From NCBI GenBank assembly GCA_964016885.1, contig OZ024740.1, positions 174,158,001-174,222,000 of the forward strand: 64,000 bases of DNA, written 5' to 3'. This document shows positions 680 to 39,219 of this stretch, piece by piece (position 1 is the stretch's first letter; every line of letters begins with the position of its first letter). The stretch comes from Eledone cirrhosa. Taxonomy: Eukaryota. The translations under genes were made by a program, and so were the position numbers. The notes beneath the pieces were generated by a model. The model did not search any database, was not told where the DNA came from, and saw only the letters and a program-made list of their open reading frames with translations.

Positions 680-737
680 ATACCTGATGATGTCACCGAA
701 TTCATACTGAACCCGGTCATTGAAATGTTCATAGTAT
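680..737 (+). ncRNA. Minimal type-I hammerhead ribozyme motif
   Basis: atac-CTGATGA-[tgtcaccg...cggtcatt stem II]-GAAA-tgttca-TA-gtat; stem I atac/gtat; (TA)n follows about 50 bp downstream. Confidence 0.65.
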
Positions 738-1188
738 AATAAACCTTTAAGAAATTACACCAGTCCAGCCTCCTGTTATATTATAATATATATATATATA
801 TACATAGATATCCACGGTAAGTTGTGGGGTCCAGTCTGCATGAAGAACTCAATGTAATCCATATGTTGAAAATGTTGTAGGTTAAAATAAATCCCGGAAA
901 ACAATAAAACATTAAAAGGAAAACAGAGTCATGATATAAGTTAAAACAATGAAATAAAAATTCAAGTCATTAGAAATATACTTTTGAAATATGCTTTTGA
1001 CAACAACTGGTGATATACATGTAAGTAAATATTTTCCTGATCTGATATTTTGTAACTAACCTTACATAGATCGATAACGAAGTATGGTTACGATGTATTA
1101 TCATCACCTAGAAACGATCGTAAAGCAGTGAAGTATATTTCTAATGACTTGAATTTTTATTTCATTGTTTTAACTTATATATATATAA

Positions 1189-1312
1189 GTCGAAACGGCT
1201 TGAGCTCAGCCGTCGGGGTCTTACTTGTTCCTATTACCCACTCTACTACCCTAAGTATTGAGTACTTTGGTGCGTTATGGTCCACCTGGTTCCTTACCAC
1301 ATTTCCTTCGTT
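1189..1312 (+). mobile_element. Fragment of a dispersed pLTR-like repeat with the 3' half of a hammerhead
   Basis: GAAAcggct-tgagctc-agccGTC-ggggtc; the ccactctactaccctaagt segment recurs at ~30778 (+) and 28866-28885 (-); flanked by (TA)n. Confidence 0.55.
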
Positions 1313-1372
1313 ATATATATATATATATATATATATGAGAAATGTCTTCTTCTTCTTCTTCTTCTTCTTCTT

Positions 1373-1490
1373 TTGTATTTTTCTCCCGCGTTATTTTTAA
1401 TTTTTGACCTTTCTCGTAAGACGAGAAAGAAAGAAGAAAGATAAAATGAGAAAGGTCAAAAATTAAAAATATCACGGTAGAAAAATACAA
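1373..1490. repeat. Imperfect inverted repeat (~43-bp arms)
   Basis: ttgtatttttctcccgcgttatttttaatttttgacctttctc pairs with gagaaaggtcaaaaattaaaaatatcacggtagaaaaatacaa. Confidence 0.8.
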
Positions 1491-1759
1491 TACAACGAGG
1501 ATATATATTAATTTAGCACTTGATGTAGTAGGAAAACAGTTAGTTGGAACATATTACTCCTTCATAGAAGAGAGAGAAGAAGAAATAGAAAGATTGACTA
1601 TAGGCAAACTTTTAACAGTTTAACGTAAATAGCAACTTCCAAGAGAGAATAGCGCTTTTGACACGCTCAGAATAACATGGTTAAGAACAGAAACACAGAT
1701 TCTATTGTAACGGGCTCGAAGTAAAACCATTTAATAATGATTGAACAGGCATTAAATTA

Positions 1760-34306: not shown

Positions 34307-37150
34307 AAAAAAACAAAAAAAACAAAAAAAACAAAAAAACAGAAAAACAAAAAAACACACATAAAAAACAAAAAAACACACATAAAAAACAAAAAAACAC
34401 ACATACTCACTCACACACTTACGCGCAACCATAAACACACACACAAACACATATACACACATAAAAACACACACACATATATAAAAAATATATAAATATA
34501 TACAAATATATATTCATGTACACACACATACATACACACATACATACATACATACATATATAATACATATACACATATACATACGCACATATATATATAT
34601 ATATATATATATATATATACATATATATATATATACACACATACACACACACACACATATATACATATATATATACATATATATATATATATAAATATAT
34701 ATACAAATATATATATATATATATATATATATATATATATATATATATATACACACACACAGATACACACACACATACACATACATACACACACACACAC
34801 ATATATACACAAATAAATACACTCACACGCATACATACAAACACGAGTATACATATGTATAAATATCTATACACACACACATACACACACATATATATAT
34901 ATATATACATATATACACATATACATACACATATATATACACATATATATATACATATATATATATATATACACATACATACACACATATATATATATAT
35001 CTCTATACACACACATACAAATACATATATATATATATATATATATATATATATCCATACATACACAAACATACACATACATACACAGACCTATACATAA
35101 ATATACACATATATATACAGACATATAACGCACATATACACACACATATATATATACATACACACACATATATATATATATATATATATATATATATATA
35201 TATATATATATATATATACATACATATACATACATACACACACACATACATATATATATATATACACACACACGCGCGCATACACACATACACACACCCA
35301 CACACAAAATATATATACACACACACACTCTCTCTCTCATGCACATATATATATATATATATATGTATATATACACACACACATACATATACATACATAC
35401 ATACACATACACATATATATATATATACATATATATACATATATATATATACATATGCATATACATATACATATACATATATACATGTACATACATACAC
35501 ATACACACATATATGTACATATACACTCACAAATACACACACATACACACATATATACATATACATACACACAAACACATACATATACACATATATATAT
35601 ACACACAAACATATACACACATACGCACACACACACATATATATATATATATATATACACACACACACATACACATACATACACATATATATATATATAT
35701 ATATATATATATATATGTGTATACATATATATATATATATATATATATATATATACACATATACACACACACACACATACACATACATATGCATATATAT
35801 ATATACACACACATATATATATATATATATACATACACATACACACATACATATATATATATACTCACGTTCATATACATACATATACACACACACACAT
35901 ACACGCATATACTTATATACATACAAATACACACACATACACATATATATACATATATATACATATGTATATATATATATATATATATATATATATATAT
36001 ACACACATATATATATATATATATATACACACACACACCTGCCCACACTATCATATACATATATATATATGCATACATACACATATACATATATATACAT
36101 ATATATATATATATATATATATATATATATATATATATATATATATATATACACATATATATACATATATATATATACATATACACACACACACACACGC
36201 ACACACATACATACATACATACACACTCACACATACATATACATATATACATATACACACATACACACACAGATACATATACATATACATACATATATAT
36301 ATATATATATATATATATATATATACACACATACATACATGCACACATACATACATACACATGCATACATATATACATATATACATATACACACATACAT
36401 ATATATATACATATATATATATATATATATATATACACACACATACATATACACACATATATATACACACATATACACACACATACATACATACACACAT
36501 ACACATACATATACATAAACTTACACACACACATACACACGTATACATACATACATACATACATACATACACATACATACACACACATATATATATATAT
36601 ATATATATATATATATATATATATATATATATATATATATATATATATATACACATACATACATATACACAAACACATACATACATATACATACATAAAT
36701 ATACACACATAAAACACATATACACACAAACATATATATATACACATACATATACATAAATATATACACATACATATACACACATATATATACATATATA
36801 TACATACATATATATATATATATATACATATATATATACATATACATATATATACACATATATACATATATATATATACATACACATATACATACATACA
36901 TACATATACACAAACACATACATACATATACCTACATAAATATACACAGATAAAACACATATACACACAAACATATATATATACATATATATATATATAT
37001 ATATATATATATATATATATATATATATATATATATATATATATATATATATATACACACAACACATACACATATACACATATACAAACAAATATATACA
37101 CATACAAGCAAATAGGTACTCAATAAATATACGCATATACACAGGCACAT
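34307..37150. repeat. ~2.9-kb (CA)/(TA) compound microsatellite
   Basis: Directly visible. Confidence 0.95.
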
Positions 37151-37284
37151 AAAGACACCTCTACAGGCAGAAAAAGTAGATACGAAAGAGGTACTCACAT
37201 GACCATAGTGGCCGTATTTCAGGTTGCGGAGGGGTGGGGGTAGGGTGGGGAGGAGGTATAGGGGCCAATAGGGGGAGGTCGTTT

Positions 37285-38772
37285 TTAGCCATCGGGCTTT
37301 AACACTGGCTTAAAGTGTTTGAATGTTGCAAAGTTCTTGTGCATGCAGTTCGGGCAGTGTTCAGAGAGTTTGTTCAGTAGCGGGCCCTTGGCGAATAAAA
37401 TTTCGTAGCTCTCTGAGATACAAAGGTCGCAGCCCTTGTGTTCTCCGTTGTAAGAGCGCGCTTTCTGGAGTATTTTCCAATTAAGCGTGAAGGGGGTGGA
37501 GTTCCTTTTGAGGTCCCAAACGTAGGAGGCGAGTGTTGTTTGATTTGATTTATCCGGTCTTCTGAAGGAGTGGGTATGGGCATACCAGCGGGTCTTAAAG
37601 GTGTTGGAGGTCATGCCGATGTAAGTTTTTTTGCAATCCTCGGTGCCCGAGATGACATCGCATTTGTATACGATGTCATTTGTGAGGCATTTGTTTTCTA
37701 GTGGGCATGCTTCCTTATTTAGGCAATTACATAGAGCCCCAGTCCGGGGATTGGTTTCGGAGGTGGTTGGCTTATTTAGTTTAGAGTTGTGGTTGGCTAT
37801 ATTCCTAGCTAGGTTAGGTGTGGTGGAGTAAGACAGTCTTATAGTGTTCTTATTAAAGATGGTGTAGTACCTATGTTGTATGGGGAAGTGTAATTTCAGT
37901 AAAGTGAAGAAAATCCTAGCTATCGGAGTAGATACCTCTCTATTGAAGGGAGGGTTGTACCAGCTAATCTGCCTATGTCTATTCCTCCTCTGCAATTTTG
38001 CGGTGGTTTCTAGGTAAGTTATCTTATCTTTAAATCCGCTACGGTCTAGGGCGTCATTGTAGTAGGAGGCAGATGCATTAAAAATATCTTTGTTGGCGGA
38101 GAGGCCAGATATTCTAATAGAGACGCTTTTTACTAGGTTATCAGTAATGTTTTGGGGGTGGTTTGAATTAACATTAATATATTTAAGGGACTCGTTAGGT
38201 TTGTGGTACGGGTAATAGAGGAAAGTACCTAGGTCGAGAGTGACATCTAAGAAGTTGGCCCTAGTCAAATTAGAATCTATAGTTATACTAAATCCTAGAT
38301 TAGAGAAGAAAGAGCTTAAGTTTTTCCGAAACCCATCGGTGGTTCTGGGGCTAACCTTATGCAGGGCGAAGAGGCCGTCGTCTCGGTATAAACCTCCAGT
38401 TAGGCCGGTAAAGAGGTTCTTCAGGTTATGTAGGATGTACAGGCCCACAAGGTCGCTAATTTCAGCCGAGTCACTCGCCCCCATGCTAACGTCAAATGGG
38501 GTCTGAGATTTCTTGTTGATCCAGTAAGATCCATCGTGGTATAGAAAGGTCTTACGAGCGTGGAGGATAATAACTTGCTCGGCATCGGTAATGGTGGTAA
38601 AATTCCTGGCAAAGTTAATTGCGTCCTTCGGGAGGGGCTCCGAGATAGAGGCATAGTAGTTTTCTATGTCGAGTTGCAGGAAGCGAGTGTGGTGTTTATC
38701 GGGTAATTCTTGGAACCATGATATTGCCTCAGATGTTCTACTCCAGAGTGGAAGTGGTGAGGCCGCCCGCAA
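37285..38772 (-). CDS. PLE RT + GIY-YIG endonuclease (partial, uninterrupted 495 aa)
   Basis: FLQLDIENYYASI, FDVSMGA, GGLYRDDG, NFLDVTL, SNHP, CNCLNKEACPLENKC, IVYKC...YIGMT, CDLC. Confidence 0.9.
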   Translation of the reverse strand: MRAASPLPLWSRTSEAISWFQELPDKHHTRFLQLDIENYYASISEPLPKDAINFARNFTTITDAEQVIILHARKTFLYHDGSYWINKKSQTPFDVSMGASDSAEISDLVGLYILHNLKNLFTGLTGGLYRDDGLFALHKVSPRTTDGFRKNLSSFFSNLGFSITIDSNLTRANFLDVTLDLGTFLYYPYHKPNESLKYINVNSNHPQNITDNLVKSVSIRISGLSANKDIFNASASYYNDALDRSGFKDKITYLETTAKLQRRNRHRQISWYNPPFNREVSTPIARIFFTLLKLHFPIQHRYYTIFNKNTIRLSYSTTPNLARNIANHNSKLNKPTTSETNPRTGALCNCLNKEACPLENKCLTNDIVYKCDVISGTEDCKKTYIGMTSNTFKTRWYAHTHSFRRPDKSNQTTLASYVWDLKRNSTPFTLNWKILQKARSYNGEHKGCDLCISESYEILFAKGPLLNKLSEHCPNCMHKNFATFKHFKPVLKPDG

Positions 38773-39168
38773 TAATGGTAGAACTCTATCCAGGATCTTC
38801 TTACTGATAGAGCCGATGTCAGAACGAGTGGGGTTGATAAGTCTGACTGATGGTTTGTTGAGGAAATTTCCCTTATGGTCCTTCAGGGTAAAGTGCGGGG
38901 TCTTTACCCTTAAGGTTCGGTTCGGTCATGTAATTTAAGGGACTTGGCGATTTCTTTTCCGGCCGCGTTTGTCTCATTCTGTCTGCCTTTGTTACTTTGT
39001 TACTTTAAAAACATAAATAAATATAAATAAAAATTAACTAAAGCTTTGTAAAATTAGCTTTTAATGAATTCCCTTTTCTATCAACCAATGACCTGCACCC
39101 ATCCCACTCCCCACCCTCTCCTACCACTTGTAGAGACCTATAAATACCATATTTATTTTTTGATACCC

Positions 39169-39219
39169 AGATTCCTGATGATTTCTAATGAATGAAACAG
39201 TTCTAGTCCTGTAGAATCT
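39169..39219 (+). ncRNA. Type-I hammerhead (family A, inverted pLTR)
   Basis: Mirror of 33796-33846, including the private taat loop variant. Confidence 0.85.

Follow-up and report, generated by a model that had tools for sequence, protein, structure and literature searches.

Penelope-like elements (PLEs) of the Hydra clade insert into (TA)n tracts and bear hammerhead ribozymes (PMC8557442). The accessible part of that work also describes inverted 5′-truncated PLE copies, tails and TA targeting, and head-to-head inverted pseudo-long terminal repeats (pLTRs) and tails appear in the available sections of two further studies (PMC3846280, PMC8969392). TA-targeting Hydra and Naiad families have been listed from Octopus in a supplement, and in 2021 the tandem and inverted structures of PLEs, together with their bias towards microsatellites, were named as unresolved (PMC8557442). 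Here, we report on a stretch of 64,000 nucleotides (nt) from Eledone cirrhosa (assembly GCA_964016885.1, contig OZ024740.1, positions 174,158,001 to 174,222,000; hereafter the window), in which five palindromic islands (A to E) sit in (TA)n tracts and carry hammerhead motifs on their arms. These islands are probably head-to-head double copies of hammerhead-bearing PLE 3′ ends, left behind as dead by-products of two-strand priming with early stops; that they derive from PLEs at all we hold with high confidence. They are most likely ordinary truncated, inverted PLE insertions and not a new element class.

Structure of the palindromic islands

The window has a G+C content of 35%, holds no N, is rich in (TA)n tracts up to 46 kb and also contains fragments of long interspersed nuclear element (LINE) type, PLE type and helicase-like type. 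Palindromes were located by self-BLAST after microsatellites had been masked. The search recovered all five palindromes described in an earlier note on this DNA, each where that note had placed it, and returned two more (28894-29009 and 934-1180) as well as two long elements with inverted ends.

Island A (21375..21814) consists of a tail (21375-21475), a long arm (21476-21618, sense on the minus strand), a spacer of 24 nt and a short arm (21643-21814, sense on the plus strand), with hammerheads at 21527-21565 (−) and 21696-21758 (+). The latter holds a 22-nt duplication of the stem III/cleavage segment, and the arms (21476-21618 and 21643-21809) differ by this duplication and six substitutions. 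Island B (25604..26323) has its tail at 25604-25690, a long arm reaching to 25963 (sense −), a GA-rich spacer of 84 nt and a short arm at 26048-26323 (+); its hammerheads lie at 25742-25790 (−) and 26222-26270 (+), and two substitutions separate the arms 25691-25963 and 26048-26321. Island C (27121..27556) begins with the short arm (27121-27312, sense −), followed after a 2-nt spacer by the long arm (27315-27506) and a tail to 27556 (+); it carries hammerheads at 27246-27274 (−) and 27353-27381 (+), and its arms differ by two substitutions. Between the short arm (29352-29493, sense −) and the long arm (29500-29641) of island D (29352..29703) lie 6 nt, the tail extends to 29703 (+), the arms differ at three positions by substitution, and the hammerheads, both of U3-A8 type, occupy 29432-29461 (−) and 29532-29561 (+). 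Island E (31030..31224) comprises a tail (31030-31097), a long arm (31098-31159, sense −), a 1-nt spacer and a short arm (31161-31224, +), with one complete hammerhead (31163-31201, +) and one that is cut (31119-31157, −); the arms 31098-31159 and 31161-31223 differ by two substitutions.

Head-to-head layout with the 3′ ends pointing outward is common to all five islands, the hammerhead of the left arm lying on the minus strand and that of the right arm on the plus strand. Each island has a tail confined to one end, in agreement with the single unpaired extension noticed earlier, and this tail measures 99, 90, 55, 66 and 68 nt in A to E (counted from where the TA run of the short arm begins). 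Divergence between arms ranges from 1 to 5% among the islands. Their placement within (TA)n and their lack of coding capacity were likewise borne out: TA tracts lie outside both ends of every island, with (CT)n plus 12 nt of TA on the tail side of C, and the longest ATG-initiated open reading frames (ORFs) in the islands span 17–56 amino acids. Any target-site duplication would be masked by these flanking TA tracts. A sixth palindrome, F (28860..29011, left end approximate; arms 28894-28950 and 28953-29009), was not part of the earlier note. It contains only the 3′ half of a likely hammerhead and no CUGA core, and it has sibling 3′ ends at 1189-1310 and 30763-30851.

Family E and its Hydra-type relatives

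In the self-BLAST, island E matched 13424-13548 with 96% identity and 33715-33845 with 94.7% identity, and both of these segments are the 3′ ends of longer minus-strand insertions. The first insertion (13424..14768, −) comprises an endonuclease fragment and an inverted tail-less 3′ copy (14560-14768) with a hammerhead at 14709-14747 (+). The second (33714..39222, −) comprises a tail and 3′ untranslated region (UTR) with a hammerhead at 33802-33840 (−), expanded TA/CA repeats, a 5′-truncated ORF and an inverted tail-less 3′ copy (38976-39222) with a hammerhead at 39175-39213 (+). Both terminate in an inverted copy of their own 3′ end in which the hammerhead is kept and the tail is absent, the same as in E, and TA tracts flank both ends of all three family-E insertions. 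On sequence identity, island E is assigned to PLEs. The three insertions form a series whose spacers measure 1 nt, ~0.86 kb and ~4.9 kb, E being the shortest. Since the longer insertions matched by E likewise terminate in an inverted 3′ copy lacking the tail, the islands stand at the short extreme of a continuum of inverted-pLTR PLE insertions; across islands, F and the longer insertions, the spacers measure 1, 2, 2, 6, 24 and 84 nt, ~0.86 kb and ~4.9 kb.

The 546-amino-acid ORF of the longest insertion (37285..38925, −) follows the Hydra-clade pattern, with a reverse transcriptase (RT) core LYRDD, a CxCX5C linker, a YIGMT nuclease motif, and CxxC and CxxCxH ends. LYRDD followed in frame by YIGMT places an RT ahead of a C-terminal GIY-YIG nuclease in a single ORF, by motif and not by profile score. 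The linker reads CNCLNKEAC at 37731 and at 14517, and CNCRNRVDC at 18423; the neighbours of conserved residues include CDLCISE and LNKLSEHCPNCMH (CxxC and CxH beside conserved E and N). A CCHH motif was not found, as the translation has no CxxC ahead of YIGMT. A second Hydra-type PLE (16785..20758, −) has direct pLTRs (16787-17412 and 20157-20758), a frameshifted ORF with RWR, NKT, LYRDD, CxCX5C and YIGLT, and a degenerate hammerhead near 16896-16945. Its RWR and NKT belong to the RWK/DKT region, before which the family-E copies are truncated. Going by these motifs and by-eye comparison with printed Hydra alignments, we place the family-E ORF and the 16785-20758 element putatively in the Hydra clade. 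Pfam at E ≤ 0.001 gave no domain for the Hydra-type ORFs. The 3′ UTR of 33714-39222 additionally contains ~2.8 kb of TA/CA microsatellite (34310-37140) that the sibling 13424-14768 lacks, which indicates repeat expansion within the element.

Hammerhead motifs and predicted folding

Hammerheads were searched with a purpose-made descriptor, a strong motif being defined by a score of at least 12 and the null by 100 locally shuffled windows. This descriptor tolerates a mismatch at the base of stem II and a U3-A8 core, both published features, and the shuffles were searched under identical rules. Fourteen strong type-I hammerheads were found in the window versus a mean of 0.05 per shuffled window (maximum 1 in the 100 shuffles), and nine of the ten island arms are among these 14; a stricter version of the descriptor retained only 5 motifs in the window. 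The figure of about 20 motifs given in the earlier note resolves into the 14 strong ones, one truncated motif and about four degenerate or partial motifs judged by eye (684, 13548, ~16940 and ~41710).

The type-I core (C3/U3-UGANG/A8-A, GAAA, UH, stems I and II) is complete in 9/10 arms, and the tenth has a 2-bp stem I. A CUGANGA hammerhead on both arms of each island, as had been claimed, is correct with two reservations. The core of island D reads UUGAAAA, a covariant U3-A8 variant, and the left-arm motif of island E (31119-31157, score 9.5) retains 2 bp of stem I because the inversion point lies inside the motif. Helix III is formed by the palindromes UAUGUA in A and B (with G-U), GUAC in C and CCGG in D, and by a 3-bp hairpin plus A-U in E. 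The Rfam hammerhead models that had been suggested as a check on detection gave no match in the window, and an Rfam run ranked by E-value had no hammerhead among the first 150 of 573 matches. As the available text puts it, minimal hammerheads were defined precisely because canonical descriptors overlook them (PMC4209133). The best Rfam matches, which were of microRNA type, we dismissed as generic hairpins.

If transcribed, the islands are predicted to form hairpins of −100 to −430 kcal/mol. Whichever strand is read, the geometry puts the sense hammerhead downstream of its antisense copy. Forcing the hammerhead fold would cost 47–91 kcal/mol in the full islands versus 1–3 kcal/mol (A to D) or 8–15 kcal/mol (E) in the isolated motifs, as predicted for equilibrium at 37 °C. 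In any read-through RNA each hammerhead is accordingly predicted to be buried by its antisense copy, and the proposed sequestration of the ribozyme is to this extent supported by folding. A to D, with their palindromic helix III, should moreover depend on a second copy in sense orientation, and none is present in the island. Motifs with such a palindromic helix III are described as cleaving poorly, even as dimers (PMC4209133), and for published PLE minimal hammerheads cleavage is described with the help of protein (PMC11167929). Since the hammerheads are predicted to be buried, A to D have no second sense copy, and such motifs cleave poorly even as dimers, the islands are likely to be catalytically silent relics.

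Relatives of the islands in the window and beyond

The islands had been regarded as mostly unrelated in sequence and as foldback PLE insertions from many families. The former applies in part: E has its two ORF-bearing relatives in the window, and A and B have a tail motif and their hammerhead flanks (27 nt, 85% alike) in common. In an all-against-all comparison of 12 segments, the tail of island B was ~70% alike over 50 nt to the pLTR end/ORF start of a PLE at 39459-45037 (E = 0.003), with which island A shares a short stem-loop motif. The tails of B and of the 39459 family run into ORF-start-like sequence. This element (39459..45037, −) is a canonical C-terminal-endonuclease PLE (GPKF, DKG, YVDD, GIY-YIG) in which TA arrays lie between three direct copies of the pLTR, and judging from these likenesses it is a probable relative of the parents of A and B. 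The foldback PLE assignment is hence direct for E, whose arms map with 95–96% identity to the 3′ ends of ORF-bearing Hydra-type copies, and indirect for A and B, whose arms map weakly and which are tied to the 39459-45037 PLE by tail likeness. C and D, with no parent in the window, are likely PLE insertions by architecture only; for A to D as a group, a PLE assignment is likely.

The family-E ORF has 758 relatives at E ≤ 0.001. Among the best 120 of these 758, CxCX5C is present in 113, DK[TS] in 96, RW[KR] in 73 and DKG in 9. A scan of metagenome contigs confirmed 243 loci, 77 of which were kept. A same-sense hammerhead follows the ORF end within 1200 nt in 28 of the 48 loci that have an ORF end and at least 200 nt following (0 in 20 shuffles). 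A GAGCAC-type motif lies 89–157 nt after the core in 16 of the 21 hammerhead loci with at least 150 nt downstream (0.5 in shuffles); the tails of E and of the siblings of F have such a motif too, and the 16785 element carries one in its 5′ UTR. One locus (L050) has an inverted hammerhead-bearing 5′ copy that ends before the GAGCAC-type motif, and two further related loci have inverted ORF pieces at contig ends.

Other arrangements were also seen among these loci. L005 (1-5083) holds a Hydra-type element in exact head-to-tail tandem, with a unit of 2427 nt, 99.9% alike, and one hammerhead per unit; this tandem could instead be an assembled circle. At L048 (2507-2988) and L061 (1074-1340), different hammerhead-bearing 3′ ends are stacked across short TA tracts, resembling the nesting in the window.

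Formation of the islands

The long ends are identical in all three family-E insertions, and the short ends are identical in two of them, the third lying 11 nt nearer the ribozyme. The inversion points on the short arm of the same three insertions are all different (2, 149 and 199 nt 5′ of the core). Internal TATA words mark the ends of the short arms: in A to E the short end overlaps the TA tract by 4, 5, 5, 4 and 1 nt, versus 1.24 nt expected (P = 0.005), and over all eight structures, with family E counted three times, the mean overlap is 3.1 nt (P = 0.002). Among the four arms of the 13424 and 33714 insertions, all 16 informative sites group the arms by insertion and none by arm type, and therefore both arms came from one template or were homogenised. 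In published in vitro work, purified Poseidon PLE protein is reported to nick AT-rich DNA on both strands and to extend each of them; it initiates at two internal RNA sites bounding the tail and works mostly on uncleaved RNA (PMC11167929).

We propose that both nicked target strands would prime reverse transcription. One complementary DNA (cDNA) would begin at the end of the tail and the other at an internal site 10–120 nt downstream of the cleavage position, in many cases on a TATA word with the potential to pair with the target. The RNA template would be uncleaved at the copied hammerhead, because the entire motif is present in the copy. Both cDNAs would then be end-joined with 0–2 nt of homology. 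Where both stopped within 2–175 nt of the core, an ORF-less palindrome would result (short/short, as in the islands), and long/short products would give elements such as 33714-39222.

We lean slightly towards this two-ended priming over snap-back. The latter would keep the PLE origin but start from self-priming, in which a native hairpin lets one cDNA (or an antisense template) turn back and serve as its own template, its second end being cut or joined short of the tail; fold-back on an antisense template has indeed been suggested for rotifer PLEs, from which palindromes at inverted junctions are also known (PMC3846280, as far as accessible). Self-priming predicts identical arms, as found at 16/16 sites, and tiny spacers, as found in C, D, E and F (1–6 nt). 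It may apply to F, whose axis apparently coincides with the loop of a long hairpin at the position expected for hammerhead stem II, as judged from F itself. At the axis of island E, however, the parent has no hairpin, and the spacer is 1 nt; the arms overlap there by 2 nt, with the 5′ limit of the short arm lying 3 nt beyond that of the long arm. The joining of two cDNAs accounts better for spacers of 0.86 and 4.9 kb with a junction homology of 0–1 nt, measured at the inversion junction of 13424-14768, and PLE protein is reported to extend both strands in vitro (PMC11167929). Self-priming is the main rival, less likely than two-ended priming.

Several observations weigh against two-ended priming of PLE RNA as the origin of the islands. 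Variants shared between arms are equally expected under snap-back or later gene conversion, and the short-end overlap with TA is 0–1 nt in three of the eight structures (the 13424-14768 insertion, island E and F). The family-E ORF falls below the Pfam cut-offs (GIY-YIG E = 0.011, RVT_1 E = 0.055), a PDB profile search with it yielded no solved structure (one chance match, E = 0.17), and the Hydra-clade call is drawn from motifs and alignments compared by eye. Rfam returned no family at gathering score over the whole window and, at E ≤ 10 over 24530-30850, 83 matches, none of them to a hammerhead family. In all five island motifs tested in isolation, folding was no better than in shuffles (z from −0.4 to −1.6), which is expected of minimal hammerheads and itself no support. 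The link of A and B to the 39459-45037 PLE is short and weak (E 0.003–0.008), and for C and D neither an ORF-bearing parent nor any other relative lies within the window. Among the related loci, an inverted hammerhead-bearing copy was seen in only 1/77 (L050), although contigs from short reads often break at repeats and capture too few structures of this kind. Finally, no read or contig among those listed spans an island.

Some palindromes, C being the best candidate, might alternatively form a self-propagating non-autonomous PLE class, in which a hairpin RNA silences its own hammerhead, keeps the RT-recruiting tail and is re-inserted in trans with its axis kept. Non-autonomous PLE derivatives are already known (bioRxiv 10.64898/2026.07.22.740005, in the part available). 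Read depth over 27125-29011 was taken from four public sequencing runs as summed word depth, which is not copy number. The arms of C and F were far deeper than the neighbouring helicase-like stretch (~150,000–870,000 vs 1,400–5,900 summed word depth in run X1), and three runs that share an organism label showed the C arms as multi-copy, several sequence variants persisting as close as 30 nt to the axis. In run X1, however, only about a sixth of the summed depth over the outer arm of C was left at 30 nt from its axis, which was not the case in X4 or X21; every axis occurs just once in the window, and the inversion points of the three family-E insertions all differ. We regard self-propagation as unlikely. 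Were it true, a density of five per 10 kb would mean a genome-wide set of perfect double-stranded RNA (dsRNA) hairpins, and if some axes recur genome-wide they would represent a new kind of non-autonomous retroelement. The analysis covered 15 of 576 read joints, and mirror placements are ambiguous. The listed molecule ends were considered as element ends and rejected, as five of six fall on AATT sites and mark the library enzyme; a reading of the end at 28953 as divergence at the axis of F was likewise rejected.

Less likely still is that the islands are retained by the host as dsRNA sources, precursors of small interfering RNA or ADAR substrates, with a regulatory role. RNA editing is extensive in cephalopods. 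The predicted hairpins would offer such substrates if transcribed, and small RNAs from PLE copies have been reported in a rotifer (PMC3846280, in the accessible part); but the islands are surrounded by dense repeats and transposons, and going by their arm divergence they resemble ordinary insertions that differ in age. Neither a self-propagating palindromic PLE class nor PLE hairpins as cephalopod editing substrates were found described in the literature covered, most subscription papers and Repbase reports being outside that coverage.

It is very improbable that fold-back chimeras of assembly or library arose at the TA tracts. Inverted repeats next to microsatellites are hard to assemble, and no island-spanning read was seen among those listed from the four runs; yet the arms differ by 2–6 substitutions and the 22-nt duplication, independent insertions share the same tail and arm ends, TA tracts lie at both outer ends, and the same layout is found in L050, from another organism, and in Repbase Penelope-13_HM. 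TA-targeting miniature inverted-repeat transposable elements (MITEs) or foldback DNA transposons with chance hammerhead-like words would share the inverted repeats, the missing ORF and the TA context, but they are hardly credible given an unpaired tail of 55–99 nt at one terminus, so that the inverted repeats miss one end, and motifs two orders of magnitude above shuffles, and they are largely refuted for E, which is the same in kind as RT-bearing elements.

Other elements in the window

The pLTR copies of the 39459-45037 PLE are 96.9–98.3% alike, and the TA arrays between them reach 1.7 kb. Two copies start within the hammerhead core; in the full one, near 41710, this core is atypical. A solo single-arm 3′ end (20820..20988, +) with a hammerhead at 20893-20947 lies between TA tracts, and a degenerate hammerhead, recognised by eye and missed by the descriptor, lies at another solo 3′ end (680..737, +) that ends at the TA tract at 786. 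At 1189, 20820-20988, 31160, 39743 and 45037, points of 5′ truncation or inversion fall within the hammerhead or immediately upstream of it, a pattern that by inspection may reflect frequent stops of reverse transcription at the ribozyme structure.

Between TA tracts at 23556-23909 (+) we found a 354-bp ORF-less element with 35-bp direct terminal repeats. A long closing stem encloses its U3-A8 type-I hammerhead (23754-23790), in which helix III has 4 bp. A GAGCAC-type motif lies close to the 5′ end of the element, and the 319-nt unit folds at z = −5.5. The element looks like a retrozyme-like monomer or a mini-PLE in partial tandem.

The palindrome 934-1180 has perfect 50-bp arms, a 147-nt spacer and a TA tract on one side, and at 6393-6480 a 24-nt self-complementary unit forms a tandem inverted array; the descriptor detected no hammerhead in either. 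A short interspersed repeat of ~190 bp is present in four copies (24324-24511, 27730-27943, 49072-49264 and 55016-55207) and was by far the deepest segment in all four sequencing runs within the mapped 27125-29011. Degraded LINE-type elements form two pairs (49583-52966 with 57249-60613, and 46451-49077 with 55780-56909), and the LINE-type ORF 50348-51847 matches RVT_1 with E = 1e-26.

Comparison with known systems

The L1 retrotransposon undergoes 5′ inversion by twin priming, in which the second target strand primes internally on the RNA and the cDNAs are joined by microhomology, as proposed here for the islands. L1 inversions invert a non-overlapping 5′ part, whereas in the islands the second copy instead duplicates the 3′ end. 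The islands are of value as a clean natural test set and record of PLE integration. Their two recurring arm ends, same-template arms and short-end TATA overlap give nucleotide-level predictions for an in vitro assay, and they would extend the two-site initiation result of 2024, as reported for one lizard element (PMC11167929), to other clades. Such hairpins are prone to mis-annotation as MITEs or, because their best Rfam matches are microRNA models, as microRNA precursors. No publication devoted to ORF-less PLE palindromes was found in a literature coverage that was partial. The suggestion of a hidden population, or of a new self-limiting class, is not supported: the architecture has already been published (PMC4209133, PMC3846280, PMC8557442), and the three family-E insertions have three inversion points.

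The animal non-LTR retrozymes (bioRxiv 10.64898/2026.07.22.740005) resemble the islands in being ORF-less, in their type-I hammerhead and in their derivation from PLE pLTRs. As described in the accessible part of that work, they are head-to-tail tandems with at least two same-sense hammerheads, whereas the islands are head-to-head with one hammerhead per strand. In the Penelope elements of Adineta vaga and Drosophila virilis, head-to-head inverted pLTRs, an optional one-sided tail and junction palindromes are described (PMC3846280; PMC8557442, legend of Fig. 2). The tails given there are ~30–40 nt long compared with 55–99 nt in the islands, and the inverted pLTR flanks an ORF.

Closer are the Cercyon PLEs of Schistosoma, for which Cervera and De la Pena (2014, PMC4209133) ascribed pairs of opposite-strand minimal hammerheads ~100–700 bp apart to truncated PLEs; these share the palindromic helix III and the U3-A8 core with the islands. 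That account, in the text available, takes one sentence and gives no tails, arm ends, TA context or mechanism. The Hydra-clade PLEs (Penelope-13_HM and Hydra-1_Obim; PMC8557442) are described with the same C-terminal nuclease after CxCX5C, RWK/DKT-type motifs and (TA)n insertion, and with a type-I hammerhead near the 3′ end, its stem II flanked on both sides by an additional U. Penelope-13_HM is even listed with a 5′-truncated inverted copy and hammerheads on both strands. The islands differ from these elements in that both copies are cut to 60–280 nt with no ORF left and in that the window families are distinct sequences, of which only E and F are tied to the Hydra clade. The architecture is already known, and the islands of Eledone cirrhosa are further members of it.

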